Virus record (IMG/VR): IMGVR_UViG_3300023184_000039
Coordinates: 76,646 to 140,645 of that record
DNA length: 64,000 bases
Source: a virus
Strand: one strand, 5' to 3'
A program made the position numbers and the translations under genes. Positions 17 to 47,265 of the stretch are shown one piece after another. Below the pieces are notes generated by a model. The model was given only the letters and a program-made list of their open reading frames with translations, did not search any database and was not told the DNA's origin. Each line of letters begins with the position of its first letter. Position 1 is the stretch's first letter.

Positions 17-880
17 ATGCGAAATGATGGGTACAAGTGCGCCATTGATAGAAAACTATACTCCTCAAAGGTCGATACATGCGCTGGTTGTGAGGGTGGC
101 TGTCACGGAACCAAGGGTCAGGTAACACTTCTGCATGCAGAGGGATATGCACAAACCCTTGTCAAGGGTAACATTATTGATTCTGGCTTTGTTCCTGAGG
201 CAGATATGTTTGCGGTAACAATACGCCGCAAGGATGCAAAAGTATTTGATATTTTCATCAATGGTGCAACTGGACAAATTCAGGGTCATCGACTAAACGA
301 TGATTTCTCAATCAGTTCAAAGAATGACTTGCTTTTGGTGACATTTGACGAAGCCGGAGATATTGCTGTAAAGACAATACCTGGAACTGTTGTGAGTATT
401 GAGCCAGATTCATTTGAAGGCGTTGACTCCTATGCTGTAGAAGTAGAAACAAAAGATGGAAAATCATACGATGTATTTGTTTCACTTGATGGCAACATTC
501 TTGGCTACGACAAGTACGAAGAAGAAGATATTGAGATGATTGAGGCCGAAGCCGCCGAGATAGCACTAAAGCGCGCCTTCAGCGAAGAAACTCGTCAGGA
601 GATGGCCGAAAGCGGTGGGGCATTACCAGACGGTTCGTTTCCAATCAAAACCGAATCCGACCTTAGAAATGCAGTATCTGCATATGGAAGAGCATCGGAC
701 AAGGCGGCCGCAAAAGCACACATTATCAAGCGAGCAAGAGAATTAGGCAAAGAAAACCTCATACCAGCAAATTGGGTAATGGGAGAGAAGTCAGAATTCA
801 TTGATGCCCTTGATGATGATTTCAAAAAACAACTACTTGAATTCCAACTTCTTAGCGAAGAGACATCGTCCAATAGTTAA
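17..880 (+). CDS. C-terminal part of a head-morphogenesis protein (probably prohead protease/scaffold; 5' end likely upstream of the window)
   Basis: PepSY-like repeats; C-terminal ALPDGSFPIK..DL.NAV.AYGRA motif of the kind seen in actinophage head proteins; lies in the head module. Confidence 0.45.
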   Translation: MRNDGYKCAIDRKLYSSKVDTCAGCEGGCHGTKGQVTLLHAEGYAQTLVKGNIIDSGFVPEADMFAVTIRRKDAKVFDIFINGATGQIQGHRLNDDFSISSKNDLLLVTFDEAGDIAVKTIPGTVVSIEPDSFEGVDSYAVEVETKDGKSYDVFVSLDGNILGYDKYEEEDIEMIEAEAAEIALKRAFSEETRQEMAESGGALPDGSFPIKTESDLRNAVSAYGRASDKAAAKAHIIKRARELGKENLIPANWVMGEKSEFIDALDDDFKKQLLEFQLLSEETSSNS

Positions 881-897: not shown

Positions 898-3800
898 ATG
901 AAGGGTAAGAAAATAAAATCAACTCGTTTCATTCTTTCGTTCAAGGCTCTTGGACACTCACAGGAACGCATTGAGGAAATCACACATGACTTCCTTGATG
1001 GTGTTCGTCTATCAACCAAGGCTATTTCTAGGGGTGACGAAATACTGGTTAAGGGAATATCTGTTGGAAAAACCATAGGAGGGACTGGGGATGTTCCCAA
1101 AAAACAAGAGAACGAACTTCCTGGTGTAACAAATATCAACGGGTGGAAGTTTGAAAAGGCGGCAAAATATGCCCCTGGTAAAAAACTTCAGTTATTTCCA
1201 ACACAGCAACAAAGAAACTCCCCTTCCAAAAAACCAAACTTTGGCTGGATTGACGACGACACTCAAACATTCGGTTCCCCAGAAGAACTTGTCAACGATT
1301 TGCTCGCTAAGCCAAAAGTAGAAAAAAAAATATACAACGTTGATAAAGACGGTAACCCAACATCTGTATTTTGGGAAGAAGATAAAAAGGAAATAGAAGA
1401 AAAATCACTTGGTCGTTCAATACGAGAAATGAACCCCCGTGGTGGTTTGGCTCAACAGGCGGCGAGTCGCCTGAGAATAGTTGTTGATGACTTGGGAAAA
1501 TTTAGGTGCCCACCTGGGACACCGCAGGCAAATCAATTTACCGACAAATTGGGAACAACATGTTTTGCTGTCAGCGTAGACGAACTTGTTGGATTGGTCG
1601 AAGGGGCAATACAAAAGTTCCAAATGACTCCTAGTGGTCCAAAATTTGGAAATGTTTTAGAATCTCTTTCATCAAGGGGAACACAGGGAACTGGAAGAAT
1701 GGGGGAGTCACGAAGACTTGCCGAAGGTGCAAGCAGGTGGTTTTCTGGTGCCGTAAAACGAGTGGCAACTAGGCACAACAAAATTGATGCCAATGTCAAA
1801 CATCTTGAAGACACATTGGGAATTGGTTCAACGGATTTAGAGAGAGCAACCAATGCTGACCTAACCAAGATATTTCATACGCTCAAATCAAATGGACATT
1901 GGGATATTGAATATAGGGGTGGCATAAGCGATAAAAAACTTCAACCCCTTTTAGACCAAATGGGTCTTAGTCTTCAAGATTATAGAAAAACAGAACGGGC
2001 TTTTTTGTCTCGACTATTGATGGAATATTCGGAAAACCCAGAATTGGCAAAAAGAGTTGCAAGAATTTATCATGTTGGAGTCGGAACTTACAGAAACAAC
2101 AGTGGTCTAGAAGCAGCCACCGATTTACTCCTACCCCCCGTTGGGGCAAAAGATGTCAGGAGGGGAATGGAAGATGCAATAGATGCCAAATTTGAAATCA
2201 TGCTTGATGTAGGGCAAATGACTGGAGAGGCAACTAGGTTCAAGGGTCCAGAAGTGGTTTCCAAAAAACATCGCTGGGGTTTAACCGTATCTGGTGGTGC
2301 AACAGAAGAAGAGCGACAGGCTGCATTGCTTGACTATGTAAACAAACAAAACGATTTTTCAAATCGCGCATCGCATTTTGTTATGTTTGCCAGCAAAGAC
2401 AAACATGTGGGAAAAGGTTCCAATACCGCATCGCACGAATTAAATCATGTTCGTCAAGCAATGGCTGTTTTGCATAAAGCGCAAGAAAGTGACAAATTAA
2501 AAGGAAAGAAGTTATCCGAAATGACTTCTGGAGATTTGTGGGATGTACTTGTGGATTTAAATGACGATATTGATATGAGGGACTGGGAAAAAGTACGTAA
2601 AAATAAGGGATTGATTGATGTGCTTGGTGGTGACTACCCGCGTGAATATGATGAAAGGAGGAACGATGTTGGAACCCTTGAGTTATTGGCAGAAGTTGGT
2701 GCATTGCATGACTCTGGGGTAATTTCTGGTCAGGAAATTGAAGACTTTCTTGATGTGCACTCCGCTTGGCAGCGTCAAGACAGTTCCGTAAAAAGAGATG
2801 TTTCTAGAAAAAAAACAATGCAGGCAACACGAAAAAGGGTAAGTCAACCAAGTCGCAACAGTGAGGGTGTTCTTGATGTCCCCGTTTTTCCAGAATCCGA
2901 TGGTGCAACACGGCGTCGCCCCCCAAGAAGGAGCGGAAAAACATTTTTTGATAGTGATGGAACAAAAAAATATGCAGAAGAGCATAGAAAATGGGTGCTT
3001 AGCAAACTTACCGAAAGCGAACAAAAAGCAATAGAGCGTCTTGGAAGACCAGAATACGAAGATAGGGATATTGTAAAAATTACAAGGCTTTCATCAGTTG
3101 AGGACAGTATTAAAAGAATGGAACGAAGGCACAGAGAACTTGTTGATGTCGGTCTTGAACCAGACGGTCTTAGTGTCCACGAAGCATCGGTTTCACAACA
3201 ACTAGAACGAACACTCATACCCACCCTGACGGCACTTGACAAAAGTGACCTTCCAGACAGAATACAAATCGTTATTCCATCAGGCGAAAAATGGGACCAA
3301 TATGGTCATGCTGGTGCAATGTTAATGCCAGAATCGGTATCGTCGCACAACATCCTTGATAACGAAATGGCGATTGAGCCCGGAATGGTCATTCTTGACA
3401 CAAGCCCTGGAACGCGCGGTATATTCCATGCAGAAAAAAATGGCGGGTCTGTAATTCTTCCACCTTCAAAAATTAGACTTACACACCTAGATGCCGACAA
3501 TGTTTGGCATGCCGAAATTGTTGACCAAGAATCAAGCATGGATACCATCAATAGGCTTGAGGGATTACTCCCAACAAAAGCAAACGACAAAAGGAATGAC
3601 AAACTCATTGCTCGGGAGGTTGATTCCATCCGACAGGTAATTGACACCCATCGTAGTAATGCCGCAACTAGTAATTCCGGGATTCTTGGAGATGGCTTAA
3701 GCCATCCAGTTTTGGCTAGTCGGATACGAAAGAATAATACCGATGTGGTCAATTCAATACTTGATTCTGGTGGGAAACCGTTTGACGGACCCGAACAAAT

Positions 3801-5028
3801 AGGTTCGGATTTACCAGACTGGCTAAAAAAGCAACTGTTTGACAAAAGCAAATTTCAAGAATTAATAGATGGCTATTCAGATGACGATGTTTCCAGTGCC
3901 CTTGATAATGCCGCACTTGACCTCCACGAAGGATTTGACCGTCGCGTTCGTGTCAGAATGGGTGACGATGGCTTGAACTCACTGTTGTCTGGAAATACAG
4001 TTGCTGCCCCAAAACTAACAGGCTCTCGAGCGATGATGCAAAGGAGATTCTTGGCATCAAACGGAATCACCGAAGATGCAAAACCAGACACACATCCAGT
4101 TCGTGGATATGTAGCGCATGACGTGCACGAGGATAAAGTTTCTGAGTTACTCAAGATGCAAGGAATTGTCACTGGTGATGCTCCAATAGAGTTTGATTCA
4201 TCCAACCACCCCTATGGCTCCGTTGGTGCCGATGGGGATATAGAGGTATTGTTGCGACCAGAAGTTTCTGGAAGAACTGCGTACTCGCTTGGCAGAGGTA
4301 TTGATAATGACAAAAAACCAGTGTGGATGAATTCCGATGATATGTCAGCCATATCGGAAGCATTGCTTCCAGTAGCAGAAAACAGAAAAGACAACACTGC
4401 TGGTATTTCAAATGCACTAACAGCACATCTTGATAATGACCTAAGTGCAATGAATAACATGAAGGTCGTAAAACCAAATGCCAAGAAACCTTCCTACCAG
4501 GAAGAGATGGCAGATGCCAATTTCTCTGGTGGACAACCATACGGGGCGCACATTTTGGGTGGTTTTAATAGGGATGATGTTGCAGAAATTAGACACCCTT
4601 GGAGCAAAATTGAGAAGTCGTCAACAGATGTTGATATTAGTGATGTTGCTCAAAAAGAACCAATTTCGGAAAAATTAACTCGTCTTGGTTACTCGGAAGA
4701 AGAGATTAATTACTTCTACTCACTCAATGGTCGGAATGGAACAAGTGGGATAAATACTTCTGCCATGAAGCAATTGCGAAATTATAGAAAAAGCCAGACC
4801 GTAAAAAGCGACTACGAAAAAATGGGTGTTCCGAGTGTTTCTTTCCCACAGAAGCATGGGCTTGACATGCACTCCCCTAGTTCTTATTCCACCAACCCAT
4901 CTGACCGAGGGAAAACAGTGGAGGCAGTACTGTCAAAACGCATTGAGCAAGAAATGGATGCCGAACTTGATGCAACAATGAAAAAGATACAAAAAGCAAG
5001 AGCTGAAATGGTTGGGGTTGGTTCGTGA
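898..5028 (+). CDS. Large multidomain head-associated protein (zincin HExxH, degenerate ART-like segment, DUF3626-like C-terminus)
   Basis: 1376-aa ORF; SHELNH...ELLAE; RCPPGTPQANQFTD motif; HPVRGY..PYG..DIEVLLRPEVSGRTAYS..AHILGG. Confidence 0.5.
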   Translation: MKGKKIKSTRFILSFKALGHSQERIEEITHDFLDGVRLSTKAISRGDEILVKGISVGKTIGGTGDVPKKQENELPGVTNINGWKFEKAAKYAPGKKLQLFPTQQQRNSPSKKPNFGWIDDDTQTFGSPEELVNDLLAKPKVEKKIYNVDKDGNPTSVFWEEDKKEIEEKSLGRSIREMNPRGGLAQQAASRLRIVVDDLGKFRCPPGTPQANQFTDKLGTTCFAVSVDELVGLVEGAIQKFQMTPSGPKFGNVLESLSSRGTQGTGRMGESRRLAEGASRWFSGAVKRVATRHNKIDANVKHLEDTLGIGSTDLERATNADLTKIFHTLKSNGHWDIEYRGGISDKKLQPLLDQMGLSLQDYRKTERAFLSRLLMEYSENPELAKRVARIYHVGVGTYRNNSGLEAATDLLLPPVGAKDVRRGMEDAIDAKFEIMLDVGQMTGEATRFKGPEVVSKKHRWGLTVSGGATEEERQAALLDYVNKQNDFSNRASHFVMFASKDKHVGKGSNTASHELNHVRQAMAVLHKAQESDKLKGKKLSEMTSGDLWDVLVDLNDDIDMRDWEKVRKNKGLIDVLGGDYPREYDERRNDVGTLELLAEVGALHDSGVISGQEIEDFLDVHSAWQRQDSSVKRDVSRKKTMQATRKRVSQPSRNSEGVLDVPVFPESDGATRRRPPRRSGKTFFDSDGTKKYAEEHRKWVLSKLTESEQKAIERLGRPEYEDRDIVKITRLSSVEDSIKRMERRHRELVDVGLEPDGLSVHEASVSQQLERTLIPTLTALDKSDLPDRIQIVIPSGEKWDQYGHAGAMLMPESVSSHNILDNEMAIEPGMVILDTSPGTRGIFHAEKNGGSVILPPSKIRLTHLDADNVWHAEIVDQESSMDTINRLEGLLPTKANDKRNDKLIAREVDSIRQVIDTHRSNAATSNSGILGDGLSHPVLASRIRKNNTDVVNSILDSGGKPFDGPEQIGSDLPDWLKKQLFDKSKFQELIDGYSDDDVSSALDNAALDLHEGFDRRVRVRMGDDGLNSLLSGNTVAAPKLTGSRAMMQRRFLASNGITEDAKPDTHPVRGYVAHDVHEDKVSELLKMQGIVTGDAPIEFDSSNHPYGSVGADGDIEVLLRPEVSGRTAYSLGRGIDNDKKPVWMNSDDMSAISEALLPVAENRKDNTAGISNALTAHLDNDLSAMNNMKVVKPNAKKPSYQEEMADANFSGGQPYGAHILGGFNRDDVAEIRHPWSKIEKSSTDVDISDVAQKEPISEKLTRLGYSEEEINYFYSLNGRNGTSGINTSAMKQLRNYRKSQTVKSDYEKMGVPSVSFPQKHGLDMHSPSSYSTNPSDRGKTVEAVLSKRIEQEMDAELDATMKKIQKARAEMVGVGS

Positions 5029-9668: not shown

Positions 9669-10970
9669 ATGGCACAGGAAAATTTGAAGGAGCTCCAAGG
9701 AGCACTTCGTCAAAAAATGGCAGACAATAAGTCAATCGCCGACTCGTTCAAGGTCGAAGAGGGCACAGTTGTCATTAACCAAAAGCAGAAGTCAGCTTTT
9801 GATGCAAACATGAAAGACATCAAAGAACTCAAGGGTTTGATTGATGGCATGGAAGCAATGGAGCAAGTTCAGCAGTGGGGCGCACAAGCATCAGACACAT
9901 CTGTTGCAGCAGCCGCAGCCGCTGGTTACTCAATCCCTAAGCAACAACTTGAATCAATCGGCGAGTCATTCTTGGCTTCAGCTGAATTCAAGGCTCTTGC
10001 TGGTGGTCGTAACGGCGCAAACATGCCAGCACCATTCCAGTACAACGGAAGATTTGATACCCCTGGTGGTTACAGCCAAAAGGACGCTTACACAGCAATG
10101 CCAAGCGGCTTTCCAACACAGTTCGGTTCAGTTCAACGTGACCCAATCGTTATCCCACCACGTCGCACAAAGCGAGTTCGTGACCTATTCCCAGTTCGTA
10201 CGACCACATCGGCAATCATTGAGTATTTCCGCATGACTGGTTTCACCAACAACGCAGGCATGGTTCCAGAGCGCAACGGCGATACATTTGCCGCGAAGCC
10301 ACAATCAAGCATGACGTTTGAAGGTGTTCAGACATCGACACGGACAATGGCACACTGGGAAGCAGCACACAGAAATGTTCTTGCTGACGAACCACAGTTG
10401 CGTTCAATCATTGACAACGAGTTGATGTACGGTCTTCGTCTCCAAGAGGATTACCAAATCCTTAACGGTGACGGCAGTGGAGAAAACCTTCAGGGCATTT
10501 TGACCACTCCTGGCATTCAGACCTACAACTGGTCAATGGGTGCAACCTTGCCAGTCAAGGACACCAAGGCCGATGCAATCCGTCGTGCTGCAACCCTCTC
10601 CTTCTTGGCTTACTACGAGCCATCTGGTGTTGTCTTGCATCCAAACGATTGGGAAGACATCGAAATGACCAAGGACAGCAACGGTCAGTACCTGATTGCA
10701 GTTTCGGTTGCATTGGGTGGAGAACCAAAGGTATGGCGCTTGCCAATCGTTGAGACTCCAGCAATGACTGAAGGAGTTGCTCTTATCGGTTCATTCGGTC
10801 AGGGTGCACAAATCTACGACCGTGAGCAGGCCAGCATTCGCATTAGCGAACAACATGCTGACTTCTTCATTCGCAACGCAATCGTCATCTTGGCCGAGCA
10901 ACGTCTCGCCCTTGCTGTCAAGCGTCCAGAGTCGTTTGTGAAACTAACCTTCAATAACGCACCTGCTTGA
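9669..10970 (+). CDS. Major capsid protein (HK97 fold)
   Basis: AAGGA RBS; N-terminal coiled-coil delta domain; ILNGDGSGENLQGIL, VLHPNDW, FIRNAIVILAEQRLALAVKRPESF. Confidence 0.95.
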   Translation: MAQENLKELQGALRQKMADNKSIADSFKVEEGTVVINQKQKSAFDANMKDIKELKGLIDGMEAMEQVQQWGAQASDTSVAAAAAAGYSIPKQQLESIGESFLASAEFKALAGGRNGANMPAPFQYNGRFDTPGGYSQKDAYTAMPSGFPTQFGSVQRDPIVIPPRRTKRVRDLFPVRTTTSAIIEYFRMTGFTNNAGMVPERNGDTFAAKPQSSMTFEGVQTSTRTMAHWEAAHRNVLADEPQLRSIIDNELMYGLRLQEDYQILNGDGSGENLQGILTTPGIQTYNWSMGATLPVKDTKADAIRRAATLSFLAYYEPSGVVLHPNDWEDIEMTKDSNGQYLIAVSVALGGEPKVWRLPIVETPAMTEGVALIGSFGQGAQIYDREQASIRISEQHADFFIRNAIVILAEQRLALAVKRPESFVKLTFNNAPA

Positions 10971-14439: not shown

Positions 14440-14468
14440 TTGATTTATTGAAGACTAGTTCATCTTTG

Positions 14469-19283: not shown

Positions 19284-19301
19284 ATGGACTATCCTATAGG
19301 T

Positions 19302-22425: not shown

Positions 22426-24540
22426 ATGAACATTTTGAGTCTTTTCTCTGGCGTTGGTGGTTTTGACATGGGTCTTGAGGCCGCTGGATGGAAAACTATC
22501 TTTCAATGTGAAATAGATAAACATTGTCAAACTGTTCTTGCCAAACACTGGCCAGATGTTCCAAAGTGGGGAGATGTTTCGACACTCACTGGTAAACATA
22601 TTATTGAAATGGCTGGACCGCCAGATGTTGTTGCATGGGGAAGTCCGTGCCAAGACCTCTCCGTCGCTGGAAAGCGCGCAGGATTGGAAGGAATGAAATC
22701 CGGCTTATTCCATGAAGGAATCAGAATCATCAAAGAAATAAGGGAGTTAACAAACAATGAATATCCAAGAATCTCTATATGGGAAAATGTCCCAGGAGCC
22801 CTCTCTTCCAACAACGGAGCTGACTTCGGGGTCGTCCTCGACGAAATGGCTAAGGCAGGGGGCTTGGCGCTTGAATGGGCCGTGCTGGATGCACAGTACT
22901 TCGGAGTGCCCCAAAGACGACGCCGCATCTTCCTGTCTACTCTCTTCCATTCTGGAGATGCCAAACGAAGTGGAATCAAAATTTTTCCTGTCGCCGAAAG
23001 CTTGCCAGGGCATATTACGCCGCGCCCAAAGAAGGGGAAAAGAGTTGCCGCCAATTCTTCGGAGAGCACTCAACAGAGTGGCGAGTCAAATGCCTTCAGA
23101 ATGACCGCATTCGGCGAATATGCCGATGATGAAACAGCATCAGCAATGAAGGCGCGCGATTACAAAGATGCAACAGATTTGGTTGTAGAGCGAACGGAAT
23201 ATGCTCAAAGCGTATTTGCAAAATCACGACATGCGAAAGATAAAGACGATTTTGAAACATGGGTTGACGGCACTGTGTCGCCAACACTGAACACATTTGA
23301 AAACCATGTTGATACTCGTTCAACCGTTGCCATTGTTAATACAAACCCATTAATCATTGATGGAACGCGCGTGGACGATGTTCGTGTTTATGACGATGGA
23401 ACTACACCAACACTCACCCACCGAATGGGCACTGGTGGCAATAACACACCGATGGTTTTTGATGACAGAACACCAAGTACGCCAGCCACCCCGATTGTTC
23501 TAGATAGAGCTTCTTTTAATCAGGGTCCAAATGCACTATGGGAACCACTGATGGAGGAGGCACAATCAGTTCCGGCTCTTGTTGCGCGTGGTCCACACGC
23601 AGTTCTTGATACATCAACACAACCAATCGTATTTGAGCCTGGTGCGATGTCTCGCATGAAGAGTGACTACTACTCAGACCATGTTGCACCAACCTTGCGC
23701 GCGCAGATGGGCGACAATCAGCCAGCAGTAGTACAACCCGACAATGGAACAATCGTATTTAACGATGACCGTAGAATTGGGCCGACCATACACGGTGATA
23801 CCGTGTCCACGCTTCAAGCATTCATGGGAACGGGTGGAAACAACACTCCAATGGTTGCACAAATCCCAACTATCCCGATTCAAGATGGTCGTGACATTGA
23901 GAAAAACCAAAACGGCTTTGGTGTAGGGGAAAATGGCGACCCTTCGTACACCATTGACACAACCGGAGCACAAGCAGTCGTACAGACAGTTGTAGATGGA
24001 CCAATGCTTTCATTTGACACTCAGTTTGGGTCAAATGCCAATGTCACCGAGAATGTCGCGCCCACCCTTAAGGCTAGTCAGCAATCCCCAAGTGTTGCAT
24101 ACTCAATTCGTGAGGATGCCAAGGCAAACAACTTCTCAGCAACCGAAATCAATGTTGCAAATTCACTATCAGCACTACAGCCAGCAATAACGTCTCATCA
24201 CGCACAAACGATTATCACCGATGAGATATTGCAGTACGACGGATACAACCAAAAACTTGAAGGCGACGGTTCATACAGGTCGTTGCGAGTTGGGCGAGAT
24301 GCAAGCGACTTCGTATCACAAGGAGAAATGGTGGTCAGGCGTTTGACGCCCCTAGAGTGCGAAAGACTGATGGGATGGGGCGATTTTCACACTAAATTTC
24401 GTGCTGACGGTTCAATCGTTCCAGATACTCAACGTTACAAAATGTGCGGCAATGGAGTTGCCAGTCCATGCGCTGAATGGGTAGCGAAACAACTTATCGC
24501 CTACCTGCAGGACAGCACGGACGCTGGGCAATCGGTGTGA
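22426..24540 (+). CDS. C5 cytosine DNA methyltransferase with expanded variable region
   Basis: LFSGVGG (motif I), GSPCQD (IV), ENV (VI), QRRRR (VIII), RRLTPLECERLMG (IX), YKMCGNGV (X). Confidence 0.95.
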   Translation: MNILSLFSGVGGFDMGLEAAGWKTIFQCEIDKHCQTVLAKHWPDVPKWGDVSTLTGKHIIEMAGPPDVVAWGSPCQDLSVAGKRAGLEGMKSGLFHEGIRIIKEIRELTNNEYPRISIWENVPGALSSNNGADFGVVLDEMAKAGGLALEWAVLDAQYFGVPQRRRRIFLSTLFHSGDAKRSGIKIFPVAESLPGHITPRPKKGKRVAANSSESTQQSGESNAFRMTAFGEYADDETASAMKARDYKDATDLVVERTEYAQSVFAKSRHAKDKDDFETWVDGTVSPTLNTFENHVDTRSTVAIVNTNPLIIDGTRVDDVRVYDDGTTPTLTHRMGTGGNNTPMVFDDRTPSTPATPIVLDRASFNQGPNALWEPLMEEAQSVPALVARGPHAVLDTSTQPIVFEPGAMSRMKSDYYSDHVAPTLRAQMGDNQPAVVQPDNGTIVFNDDRRIGPTIHGDTVSTLQAFMGTGGNNTPMVAQIPTIPIQDGRDIEKNQNGFGVGENGDPSYTIDTTGAQAVVQTVVDGPMLSFDTQFGSNANVTENVAPTLKASQQSPSVAYSIREDAKANNFSATEINVANSLSALQPAITSHHAQTIITDEILQYDGYNQKLEGDGSYRSLRVGRDASDFVSQGEMVVRRLTPLECERLMGWGDFHTKFRADGSIVPDTQRYKMCGNGVASPCAEWVAKQLIAYLQDSTDAGQSV
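22757..23104 (+). CDS. Alternative-frame ORF resembling the M.EcoHK31I beta polypeptide
   Basis: Nested in another frame of the MTase gene; S..W...G..W..STSECP..LSSILE..FFLSPKACQGILRRAQRRGKELP. Confidence 0.6.
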   Translation: MNIQESLYGKMSQEPSLPTTELTSGSSSTKWLRQGAWRLNGPCWMHSTSECPKDDAASSCLLSSILEMPNEVESKFFLSPKACQGILRRAQRRGKELPPILRRALNRVASQMPSE

Positions 24541-24697: not shown

Positions 24698-25468
24698 ATG
24701 GTGGCACCAGTGAGCATCTGCGTAATTCCCAATATTGACATCAACGAGATGCCCCCAACCCCGTCATCTGGAAATGAAATCAAATTACCAGAAGTAGAAA
24801 AAGTGCTGCGCGCGTATGCGAATCATTATGGTCATCCGTTTGGATACGTGCAAGAACAGGGCTACGAGGTATTCCAACAGATAGTTCCTATCAAGAGACT
24901 GGCATCTGTACAGATATCTTCTTCATCAACCACCGAACTTGACTTACATACAGAAACGGCCTTCCATCCATATAGGCCAGATTTCGTATTATTGTTGTGT
25001 CTTCGAGGCGACGCGGCGGCATTCACTACATATGCCAACCTGGAAACAATTCTCAGAAACCTAGGGGAGACAACACAAAGAGTATTACATCAACCTTGGT
25101 ACACAACCCGGATAGATGAATCGTTTTTGCTCAATGGTCAAGAAGATAAGACGTTTACTCTGCCCGTGCTCCAGGGAGAGGGAAAAGATACCAGCATCGT
25201 CTATGACCGTGCATTTATGAAAGGCACTACAACGGCATCTCGTAATGCCCTAATTGAACTTGAAGAAGCAATCAAGAAAAGCACACGCAAGGTTGCCTTA
25301 AAAACCGGTGAATTGATGGTGATTGACAATAAGACAACCGTTCATGGTCGATTACCGTTCACCCCTAGGTACGACGGCACCGACAGATGGATAATGCGCT
25401 CGCTTGTGACGAAGACTCTCCCACCAAGCGACCAGATGCACAAGGAAACCATCATCACGGTTCTGTGA
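24698..25468 (+). CDS. Clavaminate-synthase/VioC-like Fe(II)/2OG dioxygenase
   Basis: LDLHTETAFHPYRPDFVLLLCLR..IDN...VHGR..F..RYDGTDRWIMR. Confidence 0.88.
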   Translation: MVAPVSICVIPNIDINEMPPTPSSGNEIKLPEVEKVLRAYANHYGHPFGYVQEQGYEVFQQIVPIKRLASVQISSSSTTELDLHTETAFHPYRPDFVLLLCLRGDAAAFTTYANLETILRNLGETTQRVLHQPWYTTRIDESFLLNGQEDKTFTLPVLQGEGKDTSIVYDRAFMKGTTTASRNALIELEEAIKKSTRKVALKTGELMVIDNKTTVHGRLPFTPRYDGTDRWIMRSLVTKTLPPSDQMHKETIITVL

Positions 25469-25879: not shown

Positions 25880-28800
25880 ATGAATAACCTTGAGATACTG
25901 CTTGATGTCAAAGAACTAGGTCGTTACCAACGTAAGGTAATGACCCCATTAGATGAAGCATTTGACCCTGATGCTATTGATGGTGATGGTGATGGATTAG
26001 TTCAAGATAGAACTCCATTTGAGAGACCTGCCATTATCACTGCGATAACAGAGACAGCACAAAGGATAAGTCAAGGTATCCGTGATGCTGGTCGTCTCAA
26101 TCAGAAGCGCTCACACAATGTACATCGTGAGAGGCTAAGGGGTAAGAGCCATAGTGAGATAGCAGAGACACTAGTACCTAATGACTATGCCTCACTAGCA
26201 TCATCCCTTACAGAGATGGCTATACAAGACCTAGGTGTTGATGCCTCACCTGCTGCCATACAAACTTGGATACAGGGGAAAGTATTTGACCTCACGGGTG
26301 ATGCTACGGGTGATGTATTTGACTTCACACCTAAGCACATACGTAAGTTGCGTAAGACAGTAGAGAAGCACCTTGATGAACTACCTATGTTCAGACGACT
26401 AGTAGATGACTATGGTATGCCCCCCTTCTTCATACTAAAGAAAGGTGACTTCTCTGGTATCACATCACACGGCTTTGGTATAGGTGTGACTACTGGTGGT
26501 ATGGGGTGGACAGATGGTAAGGGCAATCGCATACCCATACTTCGTTCCATATCACTCAAACTTGGCTACTTTGATAAGTCTGGTGGTAGCAATAAGACAA
26601 AGAGATGGCTTACTGATACTGGTGTTAGGGGTACTGTGCTACACGAGTATGGTCACTACCTAGCAGGTGTGCTGTATGACGACATTGTGAGTAACAAGTA
26701 CGGTAAGTGGGAGGGTAGTCCTGATGTAGTGGACTTTGCTAGGTACATCAATATGGACTCCTTCAGTATCTCTACTCAGAACAGATTTCCCAATGTAGAT
26801 GGCAAGGTAGGTAAGTCAATACCCGATGTGTTCTCTGCTATGTTCCATAAGCCTGAGTGGGATGAGGCTTGGAGTAAAGGCGACCTTCCTGATGAACTAC
26901 CTCACGTACTTTCTTTCTATTCAGAAACAAACCCTTCAGAACAGTTTGCTGAAGGAATGGCGGCCCTTCTTTCTACCGACCCCAAACAACACAAACTTGT
27001 GTCACCCGGATTTGAGGATATGGTTAAACAACTTGTTGGATTAGAGACTGATGTACCCTTTCAGTCTCAAGGTAGTAAATACAATGTAGACACCCTTGAC
27101 TTACCACAAGTGACACAAGCACTTGGTTCTAGAGGTAGAGACTTCACAACACCTTCAGGAAACAAAGAGTTATGGCATCCAATCACCAAAGATATGGATG
27201 CTACAGAACTAGCAGAACGAATACATCCATCTAGTGCTGAAGAACTCATCTCAATAATGGCTGAAGAAAACCACAGAATAACACCCACCTCATCCATCGA
27301 AGACCACAAGGCTTTGGTAGGACAAGTTCTTATGGAACTGTTTGAGGTCAAGTCAGTAAAAGAACTTGACTCAATGATGGATTTGTCAAAGAGGGGAGAC
27401 AGGGTTGGGGCAATGGAACAACTCCTTCTAGACAACCCATCTTTGATGCTCCTACACAATCAGTATGGAGCGCCACCCCTCATACACCTCACACCAGAAG
27501 CATATGATGATGCTGCCAGAAGCCTAGAAGGAGAGTTTGCTGGAATACACGTCATAGACCCACGACTCAATATTGGAACAATACTCCTATCACCCAACAC
27601 CACCGACCTATTAGATAATTACAACACACCACTCCCACTAACTGGTGAAACTTTTCAGGAACTGCTTGACAACCGGCCATTGGGACAACGACTTGTTCTC
27701 TCTTATGCTAAGTGGAGAGGAAAGTATCCCAAGTCAGTGACATATATGTCTATTGGTAATAATGTTGAGCAACTCTACGCACACGAATATGCTCACTACC
27801 TACACGAACAAATGACGGCATCTCTCCCAATGGAGGGAAACCGTGAAAGACGAGCATTACTCAGGGCATACTTGAGCGCAACTTGGGAGGAATTCTTTGC
27901 TGCTGTTGACAGACCAGATTGGGCTGAAGCATACACAAACAGAAGGAAAAAGGATTTACCAGACGACTATCCGTTTGTTGACAGCGCATATGCCTTCTCA
28001 AACCCGTTAGAAATGTTCGCTGAGTCTTTCGCTGCTGCTACGGCTAGTGACCCAGCAATAAGGGGCGCAGTCAGTCCAGAAATGAACAGACAGATGGCGA
28101 TGATGCTTGGACTTGACCCAGAACAAGCACTATATGAGCAATTAGTAGCCAATGATGATGTAGTTAGCGCCTCACTTGACATATCAAGACCACTCGGCTC
28201 TAGGAGTAAGAAAAAGGACCGAGAGTTCTGGGAAAAAATGTATCCAGACAGAACCGCAGCAGAGTGGAAAGCGATTGAGGAAAAAATACAGCAAGAAAGA
28301 GATAATACCTATCTAGGTAGACCACTCGGGTCTGCCCCAAGTTTGACTGCTTCAGAGGCTATTCGTTCGCTTGATGAGGTAGCAAAGATAGAAGAACGTG
28401 ACCTCATCACTACTGATGACCCAACACTACGACCCGGAGTACGAAAACTTGACACAAAGGCTTGGGATGGCAAGGACATCTATCAAACAGCAGATGCTGG
28501 TGATGCGCTTGCCCTCATAGCAAACGGTCATTACGTTGAGATGACACACGAAGAAGGATTGTGGCTCGCCCTCGCAGACATAGGCAAGAGATGGAAAGAA
28601 ATACAGAAGAGCAGCGGCAAGGAAATAAAAACACTCAATGCTTGTTTGTTTATGACCGTTGATGCCAATGGTAAGTCAAACAACCTGTTCTGTCGAGGAC
28701 ACCACGATATTGCTCGATTGTCAATGCCACAAGTTGGTGGATATATGACAAAAGAAAATCAGGTCTTGCTACAAGCCTGGAGGTCAGGACTTACCGAGAA

Positions 28801-31800
28801 CAGAGGTGGTGCTCACGATGCCTTCATTGGCGGCAATAAAGCCGTAGAAGCAATGAAGGAACTTGGAAAAGGAATTGTTGAGGCAACCATCACCGAAGAT
28901 GAGTGGAAGGTACTTGATAAAAAGTGGAGAAAGAAAATAGAAACACCAGAAGAACGAGCATTGTACTTTGCTAATACATATATGCCATTGGTGGAGGCTG
29001 ACTCAACACCAGAATTCATACGCTTTCTAAAACAAAAAGGAATAGGCACGGGTGATGTAGAGCTTGTAGATGTATTTGATGATGTCAACTCCACACAAAA
29101 CGAATTAGTTCTTGACAAGATTTCTGGTATTGGTGGGGCAATGTTGTCCAAGTATAGGGAGTTTCAAACCAGACGCGAACAGATACTTAGTGATATATCC
29201 CTATCTCAAACAGAAAAAGATACTGCTATTGCTGCGGCTCTCAAAGATTTCCAGACCATCCCGCAGATGTTGCCAATTATCATATCCAAAGACGGATACA
29301 TATTTGACGGTCACCACAGAGCATTTGGTAGACGTATATTTGAGTCTCAACTAAACGAAGAGGAACTCAAAGAAGTAAAAGCAATGGGGTTCCAGGTCAG
29401 AAGAAGCGAAGCAAACATCTCCGAACTGTTGGGTATTGGAAAAGCATATCAAGACCATATGGGTGTCGCAGCGGCACCGGGTGGCCCAAAGAAGGTTGAC
29501 CTATATGTTGACCACACAGAAGACATTGGTGACATATCAAACGAAGAGTGGGTACAACATCAGAAAGAAATCTTTGATGGTCTTGATGACATCGTTGCTG
29601 GTTACCATCCAGCAGACTATTGGAAACCAGCAGGTGTTGAGGAACTTGATGTCGAAGGAAATGTAATAAAAAGAACTGCTGACTCGCCAGCAATTCAAAC
29701 TGGAACTCAATCAAACGAACCAATAAGAAAAATGTATAGAGGAGAAGCAAGAAATATATTTGAGGAAGGCGATAGACAAGGGGCAATGGCACTTGGCTCT
29801 CAATCAGAGCAACCAAGTGAACCATCATCGTGGATGATGTCAATTATGGGTTCTGGACCCAACGGCCCATTGGTTGATGTAAAACCACCAAAGCCAGATA
29901 CGAGAACAAGTGGGTTCAATAAGAAATTACCAAGATGGGTAAGTACATTACTTTCCCTACATCCGTTTATTGACCCAGAGGTGCTTCAGTCGGTTCGTGA
30001 CCGCACACCAAAACCAGTCATACCTTCGTCATATCCACAGGTAATGAAGATGACAGGCAAAGAAAGACGACTACATAACACCAATCTCAAAAAGATACTT
30101 GACACAATAGAACTATCGGATGATGTAGTGAAGAACTTGTCTTTAATGGGCAGGAACAACACAAATGCACGTGACAATGCTGCCAATGTTTATCTACACT
30201 CACTTGGTGTTGACCTCAATGACTCAAAAGCAGTTGAGAAAGCCCTCAATGGTGGTTTTGCTGATTGGATGTCCACTAAACCCTATAGCGAAATAGAAAC
30301 ATTGAGTGAAATAACCCCGAGAGAGTGGAATAAGTATATAGATGGAACGCCAAGTCGTGGTGGCGAATCAGATATGAAAGAATTGGTTGCCACATTGTCT
30401 CCAATGGAAGCCAGAGAGATAGCCACATCACTCCGTGACTACACAAGGGGCTTGGAACGACCACTTACTGATGATGAATCAAAGAAACTCAATCAAATAA
30501 TTGAGACACCTGTATTTAGAGCGGCACTCGGTGTCAATGATGGTGAAGATTCAGCATCTGTTGTTAGAAGTTTCCTCTGGGATGATGCCGACAAAGCAGA
30601 ACGAGGGCCGCTTGGTTCTATGTCTGAAGCCAAGCCCGTTGTTGATTACAATGAAGCACGCAAGGCCGGTAGAAGCAAGATATTCAGAAAGAAGTACAAG
30701 TCCCGTGCCGAGATGTATGACGGCGCATCAACCGAACAACAAGTACGACTGTCTGTTCCAAGAACGGCTGAAGAACATCACACAATGATGATGGATGCCA
30801 CAGTTGACCGGCTCAACTTGCAACTCAAACTCAAAAATGCTGGAATAAGTGAAGAACCAGTTGATGTACGACGGTTCATAGATATGTCCGACCCACTCAA
30901 TCCACGGGCAAAGATTGCCGCAGTGCAGCCGCTTGTTGACCACGTCATCAAGACAGCAAAAGAGTATGAACCAGACTTCTCCCCAGAAGCAATCAAGCAA
31001 GCAGAAGCAATGGTCACCCAGACACTCAACTCATCTCCCGCCTTGCGCCACTTCGCTAGTGAGTACGGGTTACCCCCAGTGGTTATTGGCTCACAAAATG
31101 CCCTTGACAGACAGATGGTTGTGTATGCATTAAAGATATCCAAGCCAAATCAAGAAATGAACACCATCTTAGATAAATATCAAGGCATCAGGCAGATGAT
31201 GGATGAAACACGTATTCAGGAAATACTTGATGACCCAGTCGCAATGGAGAAGATACGCAAAGCATATGACAACGGGACTAACCCAATCGCAGGCGCATAC
31301 ATCAACGCCGCAAATATGTTGGTTATCTATCCCGGCTCAAGCAGCCATAAGGCGTTCCTTGACGGCAAGCCAATTGACCCGGCTTACGTCCCAAAACCAG
31401 GCGACCACACCGTACTTGACAACAGTATTGAGGCTACATTGTTACACGAATACGGGCATTACTTTGACCAACGTGTAGGTATGTTGTTGAGTGAGGGCGG
31501 CCTTGACCCAGAGAGTGATATGGCAAAAGCATATACTCGACTTCATCACAGCAACACTCTTGATGCGCTGACATCCAAGCGCGGCAACCCATTGTTCACA
31601 TCAAAGGACAATCCAGTTATTGAAACAACGTACGGGCAAACAAATACGCAAGAAATGGCCGCAGAAGCAATGAGCGCCGTCTTCTCAAACAACCCGCACG
31701 CTATGGAAATGCTCAACAAGCCGCTACTTGACGATGTATATACGCTACTTGGTATCAAGTCAAGCGAACGTAATGGCATTACCGAACGGGACTTGCCGTG

Positions 31801-33961
31801 GCTCAAGGATGCAAAAGATAAGCGCAGCGAACTTGTTGGGGATGGCGCGCCATCAACGTGGATGCAATCAGTTATGGGTTCCGGGCCGCTTGGCTCTCGA
31901 CCAGCCCGGGATGCGCGGCCGCCTCGACCAACGCTAAAAAAACTCAAAAAAGACAAGCGTTACAAGAAGCTCCCGGATGAAACGGTGAAGCTGTCTGGCA
32001 AGGATTACACATTTCATCACGAATCGATTGCGTCTGATACATTTGTCGTCAAACACAACGGGACAACAGTGGGAATACTCAACGTCGGAGAAGGTTTAGC
32101 CGGAGAGCCGCGAATAAGCAGCCTCACCGTACACGGCAATCACAAGACAAGCGGCCTCGAACAAGGACTTGTCGAGTTCGCACACGGGTATTATCCATCA
32201 CTTCGTAGCGGTAAGCGTACGTCTGAAGCATTTGCGGCGCGTCAGTTCCCAGATGCCTTTGAGGATTTGCCAGATGGTCATTCAATAATCGAACTTCCTG
32301 ATGGAGTTCCCGGTTCACCAGAGTACGTTACATCTCTTTCTGAACAGCTGAAGCGCGCTAAACGGGACAAAACCGTTGCTGTGTTTGAGTACAACAATGA
32401 AATACGGCGCGTTACTGTTGATGATGTGTACGAACAGAACGGCCAGACGTATATGAAGGGCTTTGACTCCACTCGAAACGACGGCCGCACATTCCGAGTC
32501 GACCGCATCTTTCGACCAAAAACAACAAATGTTGTTACAGAGGACGGCACAAAGACAGCCGTCGCAAAGAAGCCAAAAGCCCCACGTAAGCCCGTTGCTC
32601 CATACACGGGTAAAGCAGAGGAGTTATTCAAGGGTGCTACAAGTTACCGTGAGGTACACGACCGACTCACTACGGGTGAACTGTACTTCTATGACTTTGA
32701 GACAACCGGGATAGTCAACCATCCAAACGGTGAAATGAAATCACCCGGTGCGCCAGTGCAAATTGGGGTAATCAGGGTTGTTGATGGAAAGGTGACCGAC
32801 CGCCACGATGTCTATATGAACCCAGGAGTCCCGTTAAGTCAGTGGTCTAAAGACAACCTCAAGCGAACCGACCCAGACGGAACACAACACCCGCTTACAG
32901 ATGAGTGGCTTGCAAAGCAGCCCTCAATAGCCGACCAAATCAAGGGAGCTCTTGACTTTGTGGGCGGCGAAGGCAAAACATTTGGCGGTCAATACCAGAT
33001 ATTTGACCAAGATGTAATGAGGGAAAATCTTTCACCAGAAGAATTTGCTCGATGGCAACGTGTTGCAACCGGGTTTATTGATAGCAAGGGTGTTGTTGAC
33101 CATCTATTCCCTCGATTTGATAAAGATGCGCCGCAAGACAATCGACTTGGAACAATGACTAAACACTTCGGAGTCCCGTTGAGCAACTGGCACGACGCAT
33201 CAGCTGATGCTGAAGCATCTTGGGCTGTAATCGAAGCGGCCGTACGTCGAGCCGCAGAACGTGAAGAACGCGGGGAGCCGCTACAACAAGGGCTGCGTGA
33301 CATCGCGGCGACTCGAGCAGCGCACTCTGATTTGATGAAAAAGTACGATAATCAACTTAGTGAGTTCCATCAATCTGTCGAACAGATAAAGAAAGAAACA
33401 GAGCAAGCATCAAAGGCTCTTGGTTCTCGCTCATCTGATGAAAAGATAACAACCGGAACACCAAAACTCAAGTACGTTGGCAAGAACACCGGCTCAAATG
33501 ACTTCGTCAATGAGAACAGCCGCATCGTACAGTTCGGGACTGGCAAGAACACACGCAACTACTTGCTCTATAACGACCGGGACTCGATATATGTTATTGA
33601 TTATGATAAATCTGGGCCGCTTGATGGGTTTGAGCCCAGAAAGATGCCAAAAGCTTGGATTGTTGGAGTTATGACTACCTGGGACAATCCGAGCGATGAA
33701 AAGAAACACGAAATATCCAACATTGAGGTAAAGAAATCCCATCAACGCCGCGGATTAGCTACAGCAATGATGACTTTCTATCAAGAAGCATTCCCGGAGC
33801 GTAACTTGCAGCACTCAGACGTCCTTTCAGAGGACGGTAAGGCATTTAGGGCTGCAACAGAGGCCGCTGATATTGAAGATGCAGCCATATCCGGTAGAAA
33901 ATCTGTAGCAAAAGCCGGCAAGGAAGCAGCCCAATCCCTAGCGTCTGCGGGTGCTAGATAA
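25880..33961 (+). CDS. Giant polyvalent protein (3 zincin metallopeptidases, ParB-like, 2 GNAT, WYL-like, DEDDh exonuclease)
   Basis: HEYGH/HEYAH/HEYGH at 26642/27782/31445, each with downstream E.(F/A)AE; DGHHR at 29306; DFETTG..HDASADA from 32693; V...HQRRGLAT near the C-terminus. Confidence 0.85.
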   Translation: MNNLEILLDVKELGRYQRKVMTPLDEAFDPDAIDGDGDGLVQDRTPFERPAIITAITETAQRISQGIRDAGRLNQKRSHNVHRERLRGKSHSEIAETLVPNDYASLASSLTEMAIQDLGVDASPAAIQTWIQGKVFDLTGDATGDVFDFTPKHIRKLRKTVEKHLDELPMFRRLVDDYGMPPFFILKKGDFSGITSHGFGIGVTTGGMGWTDGKGNRIPILRSISLKLGYFDKSGGSNKTKRWLTDTGVRGTVLHEYGHYLAGVLYDDIVSNKYGKWEGSPDVVDFARYINMDSFSISTQNRFPNVDGKVGKSIPDVFSAMFHKPEWDEAWSKGDLPDELPHVLSFYSETNPSEQFAEGMAALLSTDPKQHKLVSPGFEDMVKQLVGLETDVPFQSQGSKYNVDTLDLPQVTQALGSRGRDFTTPSGNKELWHPITKDMDATELAERIHPSSAEELISIMAEENHRITPTSSIEDHKALVGQVLMELFEVKSVKELDSMMDLSKRGDRVGAMEQLLLDNPSLMLLHNQYGAPPLIHLTPEAYDDAARSLEGEFAGIHVIDPRLNIGTILLSPNTTDLLDNYNTPLPLTGETFQELLDNRPLGQRLVLSYAKWRGKYPKSVTYMSIGNNVEQLYAHEYAHYLHEQMTASLPMEGNRERRALLRAYLSATWEEFFAAVDRPDWAEAYTNRRKKDLPDDYPFVDSAYAFSNPLEMFAESFAAATASDPAIRGAVSPEMNRQMAMMLGLDPEQALYEQLVANDDVVSASLDISRPLGSRSKKKDREFWEKMYPDRTAAEWKAIEEKIQQERDNTYLGRPLGSAPSLTASEAIRSLDEVAKIEERDLITTDDPTLRPGVRKLDTKAWDGKDIYQTADAGDALALIANGHYVEMTHEEGLWLALADIGKRWKEIQKSSGKEIKTLNACLFMTVDANGKSNNLFCRGHHDIARLSMPQVGGYMTKENQVLLQAWRSGLTENRGGAHDAFIGGNKAVEAMKELGKGIVEATITEDEWKVLDKKWRKKIETPEERALYFANTYMPLVEADSTPEFIRFLKQKGIGTGDVELVDVFDDVNSTQNELVLDKISGIGGAMLSKYREFQTRREQILSDISLSQTEKDTAIAAALKDFQTIPQMLPIIISKDGYIFDGHHRAFGRRIFESQLNEEELKEVKAMGFQVRRSEANISELLGIGKAYQDHMGVAAAPGGPKKVDLYVDHTEDIGDISNEEWVQHQKEIFDGLDDIVAGYHPADYWKPAGVEELDVEGNVIKRTADSPAIQTGTQSNEPIRKMYRGEARNIFEEGDRQGAMALGSQSEQPSEPSSWMMSIMGSGPNGPLVDVKPPKPDTRTSGFNKKLPRWVSTLLSLHPFIDPEVLQSVRDRTPKPVIPSSYPQVMKMTGKERRLHNTNLKKILDTIELSDDVVKNLSLMGRNNTNARDNAANVYLHSLGVDLNDSKAVEKALNGGFADWMSTKPYSEIETLSEITPREWNKYIDGTPSRGGESDMKELVATLSPMEAREIATSLRDYTRGLERPLTDDESKKLNQIIETPVFRAALGVNDGEDSASVVRSFLWDDADKAERGPLGSMSEAKPVVDYNEARKAGRSKIFRKKYKSRAEMYDGASTEQQVRLSVPRTAEEHHTMMMDATVDRLNLQLKLKNAGISEEPVDVRRFIDMSDPLNPRAKIAAVQPLVDHVIKTAKEYEPDFSPEAIKQAEAMVTQTLNSSPALRHFASEYGLPPVVIGSQNALDRQMVVYALKISKPNQEMNTILDKYQGIRQMMDETRIQEILDDPVAMEKIRKAYDNGTNPIAGAYINAANMLVIYPGSSSHKAFLDGKPIDPAYVPKPGDHTVLDNSIEATLLHEYGHYFDQRVGMLLSEGGLDPESDMAKAYTRLHHSNTLDALTSKRGNPLFTSKDNPVIETTYGQTNTQEMAAEAMSAVFSNNPHAMEMLNKPLLDDVYTLLGIKSSERNGITERDLPWLKDAKDKRSELVGDGAPSTWMQSVMGSGPLGSRPARDARPPRPTLKKLKKDKRYKKLPDETVKLSGKDYTFHHESIASDTFVVKHNGTTVGILNVGEGLAGEPRISSLTVHGNHKTSGLEQGLVEFAHGYYPSLRSGKRTSEAFAARQFPDAFEDLPDGHSIIELPDGVPGSPEYVTSLSEQLKRAKRDKTVAVFEYNNEIRRVTVDDVYEQNGQTYMKGFDSTRNDGRTFRVDRIFRPKTTNVVTEDGTKTAVAKKPKAPRKPVAPYTGKAEELFKGATSYREVHDRLTTGELYFYDFETTGIVNHPNGEMKSPGAPVQIGVIRVVDGKVTDRHDVYMNPGVPLSQWSKDNLKRTDPDGTQHPLTDEWLAKQPSIADQIKGALDFVGGEGKTFGGQYQIFDQDVMRENLSPEEFARWQRVATGFIDSKGVVDHLFPRFDKDAPQDNRLGTMTKHFGVPLSNWHDASADAEASWAVIEAAVRRAAEREERGEPLQQGLRDIAATRAAHSDLMKKYDNQLSEFHQSVEQIKKETEQASKALGSRSSDEKITTGTPKLKYVGKNTGSNDFVNENSRIVQFGTGKNTRNYLLYNDRDSIYVIDYDKSGPLDGFEPRKMPKAWIVGVMTTWDNPSDEKKHEISNIEVKKSHQRRGLATAMMTFYQEAFPERNLQHSDVLSEDGKAFRAATEAADIEDAAISGRKSVAKAGKEAAQSLASAGAR

Positions 33962-38784: not shown

Positions 38785-39119
38785 CGGGACTCTGGCTTTC
38801 CACTCATATCACGACGATAACTCGTACGCACACCAGGAAGCAAATCACGCTCAAATGTTTGTATTTTGATGCCGCGTTCTCTCCGGGTATAAAAACGCTC
38901 ACGTTCATCTTGCCCGCCCCAAACTCCAAGCGGCTCGTGTACGAGTGAATATTCTAAACAATTACTTACAACAGAACATCCAGAACAAATCAATTTAGCG
39001 GCAGTAACTTTTTGTCGGTCTTCTCGTATTTTCACATTTTGTGGAAAGAACAACGTTGTGTCTTGTCCTTTACAGGCCGCCTGGTTCATAAACGAAACAT
39101 TAACTTCAGTAATAATCAT
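38781..39119 (-). CDS. whiB: WhiB-family transcription factor
   Basis: AACKG..FFP..C..C.V...CLEY..GVWGG..ER. Confidence 0.92.
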   Translation of the reverse strand: MIITEVNVSFMNQAACKGQDTTLFFPQNVKIREDRQKVTAAKLICSGCSVVSNCLEYSLVHEPLGVWGGQDERERFYTRRERGIKIQTFERDLLPGVRTSYRRDMSGKPESR

Positions 39120-43676: not shown

Positions 43677-43687
43677 AGAGCCAACCA

Positions 43688-44502: not shown

Positions 44503-44548
44503 CGTCCCACTCGGATACGATGTAATCACTCAACAAGGGAGAAAACCG

Positions 44549-44788: not shown

Positions 44789-44789
44789 T

Positions 44790-45358: not shown

Positions 45359-45386
45359 CTGGTCACCATATCGGGACTTGGGCGGT

Positions 45387-47243: not shown

Positions 47244-47265
47244 CTACATAATGTAGCATTGTCCA

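Follow-up and report, generated by a model that had tools for sequence, protein, structure and literature searches.

That giant 'polyvalent' proteins are processed into separate units was predicted in 2017, but no cleavage site was known; we describe an explicit candidate for one here. We analysed a stretch of 64,000 nucleotides (nt), hereafter the window, which forms the final 64 kb of the IMG/VR virus record IMGVR_UViG_3300023184_000039 (140,645 bp, with terminal repeats). It encodes a polyvalent polyprotein of 2693 amino acids (aa; label P0001) that is punctuated by seven copies of a short peptide, (P/A)LGS. The same peptide recurs in other proteins of the phage and is replaced by different tags in its relatives. 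The tagged polyprotein is a confirmed observation, and a stronger one than could be seen from P0001 alone; that the protein is processed at its tags is a well-motivated reading of the sequence comparison presented below. The virus is an uncultured double-stranded DNA (dsDNA) tailed phage, and the window also codes for an HK97-type capsid protein, a ribonucleotide reductase, a primase-helicase and WhiB. Since WhiB is encoded in a syntenic relative as well, the host is probably an actinobacterium. The gene under study is open throughout:

25880..33961 (+): P0001 polyvalent polyprotein gene, 2693 aa; open frame and translation, homologs P0002-P0007

The term polyvalent was introduced for giant proteins of phages and conjugative elements in which two to fifteen unrelated conflict-type domains, such as zincin/MPTase, ArdC-N, ParB-like, nuclease and GNAT domains, are strung in one polypeptide (Iyer, Burroughs, Anand, de Souza and Aravind 2017; PMC5512222). 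The authors suggested that these proteins accompany the DNA into the cell and are split into units by a peptidase within the chain, the MPTase domain; no cleavage or junction motif was defined, and assemblin-like peptidases were reported only at C termini (PMC5512222). A preliminary description of the window, made from its letters alone, had assigned P0001 to this type of protein. We agree with this assignment, as GNAT, RNase_T, a borderline WYL and three HExxH modules, i.e. several unrelated effector-type domains, are combined in one chain.

LGS occurs seven times in P0001 (aa 415, 772, 816, 1305, 1578, 2004 and 2514) and is preceded by P or A in each case. The composition of the protein predicts 1.09 LGS and 0.145 [PA]LGS against the seven observed of each, and the [PA]LGS count never exceeded 3 across 5000 shuffles. 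Translation of the open reading frame and the motif count bear out all seven positions given in the preliminary description:

27119..27130 (+): tag 1, ALGS, aa 414-417; GFASR/GFGSR aligned in P0004-P0006 and G001; pLDDT <50
28190..28201 (+): tag 2, PLGS, aa 771-774; breakpoint of a three-module indel relative to P0003; pLDDT <50
28322..28333 (+): tag 3, PLGS, aa 815-818; pLDDT <50, poor model in this part
29789..29800 (+): tag 4, ALGS, aa 1304-1307; MGFAS aligned in P0004; within a long low-confidence stretch
30608..30619 (+): tag 5, PLGS, aa 1577-1580; second P0003 breakpoint; GFASR in P0004-P0006; pLDDT <50
31886..31897 (+): tag 6, PLGS, aa 2003-2006; GFASR aligned in P0004-P0006 and G001; pLDDT <50
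33416..33427 (+): tag 7, ALGS, aa 2513-2516; GFASR in P0005 and P0006; end of a long helix; pLDDT <50

The twelve nucleotides of each tag differ synonymously between sites, which argues for a constraint on the peptide and not on the DNA. A repeat or recombination signal at the DNA level was ruled out on the basis of this codon variation and of the peptide PS(S/T)WM.S(I/V)MGSGP, which is indeed duplicated (aa 1318 and aa 1994), as had been noted, with only 34/45 nt identical between its copies. Two AlphaFold models span aa 380-2693, the first of them covering aa 380-1579. All seven tags have a predicted local distance difference test score (pLDDT) below 50 and lie between folded blocks, in line with the earlier claim that LGS falls at module boundaries and not inside domains. 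The second model is good, with a mean pLDDT of 68 and only 23% of residues below 50. Linkers devoid of a tag also exist in P0001, e.g. aa 2213-2229 joining WYL and exonuclease, so the tag marks chosen boundaries and not all flexible stretches.

The seven tags delimit eight modules:

25880..27118 (+): module 1, aa 1-413; shared peptide and zincin-1 (HExxH: HEYGH at aa 255, nt 26642-26656)
27131..28189 (+): module 2, aa 418-770; zincin-2 (HEYAH at aa 635, nt 27782-27796); confident fold block ~aa 429-745
28202..28321 (+): module 3, aa 775-814; 40-aa helical mini-module, homologous piece in P0007
28334..29788 (+): module 4, aa 819-1303; contains DGHHR, a candidate ParB/Srx-like motif; homologs in P0008/P0009 and P0102
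29801..30607 (+): module 5, aa 1308-1576; helical, absent from P0003, P0005 and P0006
30620..31885 (+): module 6, aa 1581-2002; zincin-3 (HExxH: HEYGH at aa 1856, nt 31445-31459); confident fold block
31898..33415 (+): module 7, aa 2007-2512; beta-rich domain, WYL (nt 32342-32512) and DEDDh exonuclease (nt 32687-33229)
33428..33958 (+): module 8, aa 2517-2693; GNAT acetyltransferase (Pfam aa 2594-2644, nt 33659-33811)

Among the domains named in the preliminary description, GNAT and the DEDDh exonuclease are recovered by Pfam and WYL is borderline; the ParB-like domain and a first GNAT-like domain found no Pfam support. Module 8 matches Acetyltransf_1 with 25.9 bits (cut-off 20.7). By family profile and predicted fold, module 7 contains a DEDDh (DnaQ/RNase T) exonuclease: aa 2270-2450 match RNase_T with 26.2 bits (cut-off 24), and the Foldseek search with the predicted model returned a DnaQ-like fold as in Pol III epsilon (TM 0.79, E=1.9e-6). 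The module also matches phrog_192, and its WYL match (aa 2155-2211) reaches 20.4 bits against a Pfam cut-off of 21.8. The three HExxH motifs of the proposed zincins are present at aa 255, 635 and 1856, in each case as HEY[GA]HY followed by E(Q/M)(F/A)AE, and the zincin-1 module is paralogous to the other two by BLAST; a Pfam family for zincin-1 and zincin-3 was not obtained. The zincin-2 module gave a sub-threshold Pfam match to ATLF (17.8 bits). Lethal-factor fold matches of the aa 380-1579 model were weak and non-significant (Foldseek probability 0.2-0.28), and no significant match was returned when this model was searched against the PDB with Foldseek. PF18818 (MPTase-PolyVal) is not matched by P0001; the sister polyprotein P0011, introduced below, matches it with 131.8 bits. 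Pfam searches of single modules assigned no family to modules 1 and 5 and gave no match for module 4, for which only phrog_2859 (aa 1111-1189) was found.

The tag is not confined to P0001. In the long open reading frames of the whole genome, 31 of 44 LGS fall in just two proteins, P0001 and the 3987-aa polyprotein P0011 (G000 63916-75879, plus strand; = L002:3917-15880), which ends 767 nt before the window, and the consensus of these 31 sites is S-[GRK]-[PA]-L-G-S-R-S. P0011 begins with a Peptidase_S78 domain (aa 23-168; Pfam 33.6 bits, cut-off 21), followed by five KTSC domains, ArdC-N and an MPTase zincin. About 22 of its 24 LGS are canonical; the first two (aa 334 and 475) were not counted, since their flanks are unusual and relatives have no tag there, so that a canonical tag is absent from the first ~600 aa. 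A third, 1637-aa protein with a Gly-zipper, which resembles a tape measure (G000 43551-48464, minus strand; = L159:3552-8465), carries REALGSGS at aa 644 and KALASRS at aa 43. In three of three genomes this protein has the tag of its own genome in its variable centre, namely ALGS here, GFAS in G002 and GLAS in G006.

P0001 as query gave no match in phage records (megablast) or in a scan of IMG/VR for close relatives. The homolog P0002 (91% identical) keeps all seven tags, and P0003 (88% identical) lacks aa 777-1576, i.e. three modules, with both breakpoints inside PLGS; the gain or loss of domains at LGS envisaged in the preliminary description is thus seen. More distant homologs (29-42% identity) contain no LGS and have GFAS(R) at the aligned joints. 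The boundaries themselves are kept, as had been expected, at aligned joints in P0002-P0006 and G001. GFAS is the top enriched 4-mer in both giants of the IMG/VR relatives G001, G002 and G003, with 11-13 copies in the S78-headed giant and 5-6 in the polyvalent ortholog (expected <0.1). When the N-terminal 480 aa of P0011 served as query, at least 241 giants of this kind, 2.2-5.7 thousand aa long, were recovered, as were at least 586 IMG/VR loci; the cargo of these giants varies (ArdC, MPTase, KTSC, sigma-type helix-turn-helix, pentapeptide repeats, UvrD helicases, RNase_T+WYL). De novo k-mer analysis of 121 S78-headed polyproteins gave the following tag classes:

FAS: 31 proteins of 121
LSS: 27 proteins of 121
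LAS: 13 proteins of 121
FSS: 10 proteins of 121
MRS: 9 proteins of 121
LRS: 2 proteins of 121
MAS: 1 protein of 121
LGS (this phage only): 1 protein of 121
weak or no tag: 27 proteins of 121

The general form across classes is G-[LFM]-[GASR]-S-[RGS]; its Ser is invariant in every class, and in most classes a G is 92-99% conserved directly before the hydrophobic residue. The classes cluster on a tree of the N-terminal region, on which at least 16 changes are needed. Several giants of one genome share a tag, as in G012 (GMRS with 15, 5 and 15 copies in three giants) and G011 (LRSS in two giants). Homologous modules in different genomes are flanked by the local genome's own tag: the exonuclease piece of module 7 recurs in other genomes bracketed by the tags of each, homologs of module 4 are flanked by GGLSS and GGLAS in P0008/P0009 and by LRS tags in P0102, and the module 3 piece recurs at aa 2862-2897 of P0007, directly behind that protein's DGFAS tag. 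In BLAST comparisons across tag classes, 27% of match ends are found no more than 10 aa away from a tag, versus 12% at random. At the level of compared sequences, exchange of tag-delimited modules is thus shown. The giants of G010 (L136-L138) are punctuated by GSKSTT, which lies outside the hydrophobic-x-Ser form, and the repertoire is hence wider than the tabulated classes.

How did LGS arise in a single lineage? On the tree, the phage falls within a well-supported clade in which 28 of the 30 sequences are of the FAS class. At the 31 tags, Leu is encoded by CTT or CTC in 26 cases compared to 50% elsewhere in the same genes (P=1e-4), the pattern expected if Phe codons (TTY) had become Leu codons (CTY) by single transitions, and Ser is encoded by TCN in 31/31. 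One joint of P0001, located between the beta-rich domain and WYL, was left unconverted and has decayed:

32228..32242 (+): AFAAR, aa 2117-2121; decayed remnant of an ancestral GFASR tag, by alignment

AFAAR aligns column for column with GFAS(R/T/M/V) of all seven FAS-class relatives in the alignment. The nearby SLRSG, taken for a variant tag in the preliminary description, was rejected, as it belongs to the end of a conserved domain and the ancestral tag of this joint is the AFAAR fossil 10 aa downstream. Taken together, tree, codons and fossil show that LGS was derived from FAS within the FAS clade by point conversion and in concert. A change of some 30 sites in unlinked genes, one by one, points to a reader acting in trans with an altered preference, for which a protease would be the obvious candidate. 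A genome-wide, lineage-specific and concertedly switched tag is what such a reader predicts, and is not predicted by a passive linker.

P0001 and P0011 share a further peptide, and the head module encodes another HExxH protein:

25958..26029 (+): N-proximal shared peptide FDPDAIDGDGDGLVQDRTPFERP, aa 27-50; phrog_7924 match at aa 25-51
17..880 (+): PepSY-domain protein (Pfam PepSY, 34.4 bits), between the S78 polyprotein and the HExxH giant
898..5028 (+): head-module giant, 1376 aa, HELNH at aa 513 (nt 2434-2448); HExxH aligned in 12/12 related genomes
9669..10970 (+): HK97-type major capsid protein (MCP) with an N-terminal delta-like extension of ~140 aa; Pfam Phage_capsid, 3.5e-56 to HK97 gp5

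The FDPDAIDGDGDGLVQDRTPFERP peptide recurs at ~aa 430-490 of S78-headed polyproteins (aa 429-455 in P0011), is N-terminal in the polyvalent orthologs of G001, G002, G003 and G006 (those checked) and is also present in other head-module proteins of relatives. Its pattern, FDPxAxDGDxDGxVQxGTPFxRP, corresponds to a DxDxDG-type loop; a search with this pattern gave no match in some tagged giants of G011 and G012. As context for the delivery proposed for polyvalent proteins, P0011 lies in the head module and the peptide is common to P0001, P0011 and head-module proteins of relatives; the peptide is a candidate virion-incorporation signal. The PepSY protein and the 1376-aa HExxH protein could form a regulated metalloprotease pair in the head module. 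The MCP is ~40% identical to HK97 gp5, contains no LGS, and its extension comprises a coiled coil, poly-Ala and the conserved SIGESFLASAEFK; a conserved SIGxxF[LI]xSxEFK is constant across tag classes in 12 genomes. At the usual position of scaffold and protease genes, the window encodes DUF6321 and DUF3721 proteins (8058-8906 and 8914-9552, both plus strand), and the gene of a ferritin-like protein lies beside the MCP gene (11096-11752, plus strand).

We propose that (P/A)LGS(R/S) is a junction tag, a short exposed linker peptide of giant, putatively virion-associated proteins that would be read in trans by a phage-encoded endoprotease. Cutting would release eight pieces from the 2693-aa protein (three zincin modules, the 40-aa piece, two unassigned modules, the WYL+DEDDh-exonuclease module and GNAT), and the same enzyme would cut the 3987-aa polyprotein at ~22 canonical tags and the tape-measure-like protein at 1-2 tags. 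Candidate readers are the HExxH head-module protein at 898-5028 and the zincins of the polyvalent protein itself; a zinc protease could act on proteins leaving the virion with the DNA, like the MPTase domains in the proposal of Iyer et al. We regard it as probable that the tag serves as a site for some phage-encoded protease. The complete proposal, with a zinc metalloprotease as the enzyme that cuts it, is put forward tentatively, at somewhat less than an even chance; cleavage, the scissile bond, the identity of the protease, packaging, ejection and the anti-host roles of the modules are what we infer.

A zinc protease is slightly preferred over the S78 prohead protease. The S78 domain is near-invariant across tag classes, with His63 and Ser127 invariant in 12 diverse relatives, and a conserved HExxH giant and PepSY protein adjoin the polyprotein. 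A hydrophobic P1' pocket is typical of zincins, and the G conserved before the hydrophobic residue suits such a pocket. Several observations weigh against this proposal. Tags without any recognised zincin in cis occur in S78-headed polyproteins of three classes (LAS, MRS and weak-FSS), and the invariant Ser beside a small residue resembles the sites of assemblin-fold proteases. HExxH is the sole feature by which zincin-1 and zincin-3 are recognised, as it is in the 1376-aa head-module giant, which has no Pfam or PHROG match. The poor first AlphaFold model (mean pLDDT 52) renders the linker support for tags 3 and 4 weak, the tape-measure identity of the 1637-aa protein is based only on size, Gly-zipper and position, and cleavage at the tags of these uncultured phages is a prediction from sequence comparison.

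Alternatively, the S78 (HK97-type) prohead protease may cut the tags inside the procapsid and free the modules for ejection: the protease domain of P0011 would drag its cargo in, the 2693-aa protein would enter via the shared DGDxDG peptide, and the system would resemble T4 internal proteins and phiKZ/SPN3US ejection proteins. The main tagged polyprotein carries this domain in cis and is encoded directly upstream of the head genes, S78-headed giants number at least 241, with at least 586 IMG/VR loci, and tags are present where a zincin in cis is not recognised. Hydrophobic-x-Ser would fit the P3-P2-P1 or P2-P1|Ser logic of assemblin-fold proteases (PMC10052503), the HK97 cut K|SLGS recalls the tag, and F-[LI]-x-S is retained in the MCP where its coiled-coil N-terminal region ends. 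However, the tag has switched at least 16 times while both the S78 domain and the N-terminal region of the MCP stay conserved from class to class, and the MCP, the obligatory S78 substrate, lacks the class-specific tag that the tape-measure-like protein, expected never to be inside the prohead, possesses. With no canonical tag in the first ~600 aa of P0011, S78 would not free itself, and the conversion of 31 single sites under selection would not be accounted for if S78 had a broad specificity. We consider this alternative possible, if rather doubtful. The S78 residues particular to the LGS lineage (N81 and T122) are confounded with phylogeny. S78 and zincins are both present in all informative genomes; G005, with neither zincin nor tag, has a weak S78 match in mid-protein and is therefore not comparable. 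Covariation of the MCP turned out to be uninformative as a test of S78, as F[LI]xS is constant in all classes and other hydrophobic-x-Ser triplets lie nearby, and staphylococcal phage 80alpha was dropped as a precedent for F|AS cleavage by S78, as its gp44 is an ejection protein.

The preliminary description had left open whether LGS is a protease site or a shuffling linker; that the tag marks joints of module exchange is borne out, and cleavage at it is a prediction. An uncleaved tag, i.e. a conserved linker, a docking motif for e.g. the inside of the capsid, a chaperone or the channel of ejection, or a joint tolerating in-frame module exchange in a protein that works at full length, would agree with the position of tags at recombination breakpoints, with the fact that no cut has been measured, and with large zincin-bearing virion proteins delivered uncleaved, such as the N4 virion RNA polymerase and TraC1 (PMC5512222). 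A passive linker, on the other hand, gives no reason to keep 5-8 specified residues, to be identical in three unlinked genes of one genome, to be converted site by site at 31 places upon a change of lineage, or to be lacking from other linkers such as aa 2213-2229. We consider an uncleaved tag unlikely; a docking motif with a co-evolving receptor is conceivable. Very improbable, in our view, is reading of the tag by a host protease or autocatalytic x|Ser serinolysis as in phosphatidylserine decarboxylase proenzymes with their LGST site. Pyruvoyl enzymes are known to cut themselves at LGS(T), and Ser is invariant in every tag class, but self-cleavage needs a folded catalytic environment and the tags lie in predicted disordered linkers. 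Close relatives with probably similar actinobacterial hosts (WhiB) have different tags, which fits a phage-encoded reader better.

Text searches of the literature found no published description of the tag peptides or of protease-headed polyproteins, and the systems closest to the one proposed here each differ from it. Compared to the polyvalent proteins defined in 2017 (PMC5512222), the protease is N-terminal and a defined tag, common to unlinked genes and clade-specific, stands at the joints. In T4 (internal proteins and Alt) and in phiKZ/SPN3US (ejection proteins), one protease motif likewise occurs in many ejected virion-internal proteins (PMC10052503), and the SPN3US prohead protease gp245 cuts after A-X-E with a preference for Ser at P1' (PMC10052503). 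An assemblin-fold prohead protease is encoded by our phage as well, in the form of the Peptidase_S78 domain of P0011. In those phages, however, the MCP uses the same motif as the cargo and cuts mostly remove N-terminal propeptides of proteins from separate genes, whereas here the MCP is tagless, a tail-type protein is tagged and the tags divide polyproteins (into 8 and ~23 pieces). HK97 gp4/gp5, the prototype of S78 protease and capsid substrate, is alike in that our phage has a close gp5 homolog and a Pfam Peptidase_S78 head. HK97 maturation cuts K103|S104, giving a mature capsid N terminus S104-L-G-S with the tripeptide of our tag; the HK97 protease is nevertheless small, stand-alone and cargo-free, and LGS at the HK97 site may be coincidence, given an MCP without LGS here. 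Phage P1 DarB and DdrB are also large head-associated anti-defence (antirestriction) proteins, and a processed form of DdrB is packaged, with its C-terminal MPTase domain suggested as the cutter (PMC5512222); DdrB has a single processing event, no recurrent tag and no protease-headed polyprotein. Eukaryotic RNA virus polyproteins share the single frame with many products, the repeated short site and the protease in the same chain, but ours is a dsDNA tailed phage with accessory effectors as modules and a site code that switches between close relatives.

The tags split each giant protein into discrete cassettes and thereby provide a parts list for hundreds of uncultured actinobacterial phages, and the concerted re-coding of 31 sites in one lineage would represent a natural experiment on the co-evolution of protease and substrate. 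If cleavage holds true, anti-defence effectors delivered by virions could be mined systematically with the help of the tags, which would also supply orthogonal pairs of protease and site. A bolder idea is that of a private, switchable 'cleavage code', in which one protease and more than 30 sites over unlinked virion proteins, namely effector polyproteins and the tape measure, co-evolve and lineages re-code all of them at once, here from GFAS to PLGS; we think this decidedly unlikely and mention it as a speculation. Hosts able to bait or sense the protease activity of a phage could drive such changes of code, as could incompatibility of co-infecting relatives; activation of CBASS (cyclic oligonucleotide-based antiphage signalling system) by phage proteases is reported in a 2026 preprint (10.64898/2026.03.04.709575).

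In the remainder of the window, the gene of a TauD-family Fe(II)/2-oxoglutarate dioxygenase (24698-25468, plus strand) lies directly upstream of the polyvalent gene and is kept in the syntenic relative L003. Also on the plus strand are genes for a DUF932 protein (19284-20324) and for a 704-aa protein with a C5 cytosine DNA methylase domain (22426-24540). WhiB, the pointer to an actinobacterial host, is encoded at 38781-39119 (minus strand) and SSB at 39618-40073 (minus strand). Genes for tRNA-Asn(GTT) and tRNA-Arg(TCT) (14364-14540, minus strand) are found beside the ribonucleotide reductase gene.

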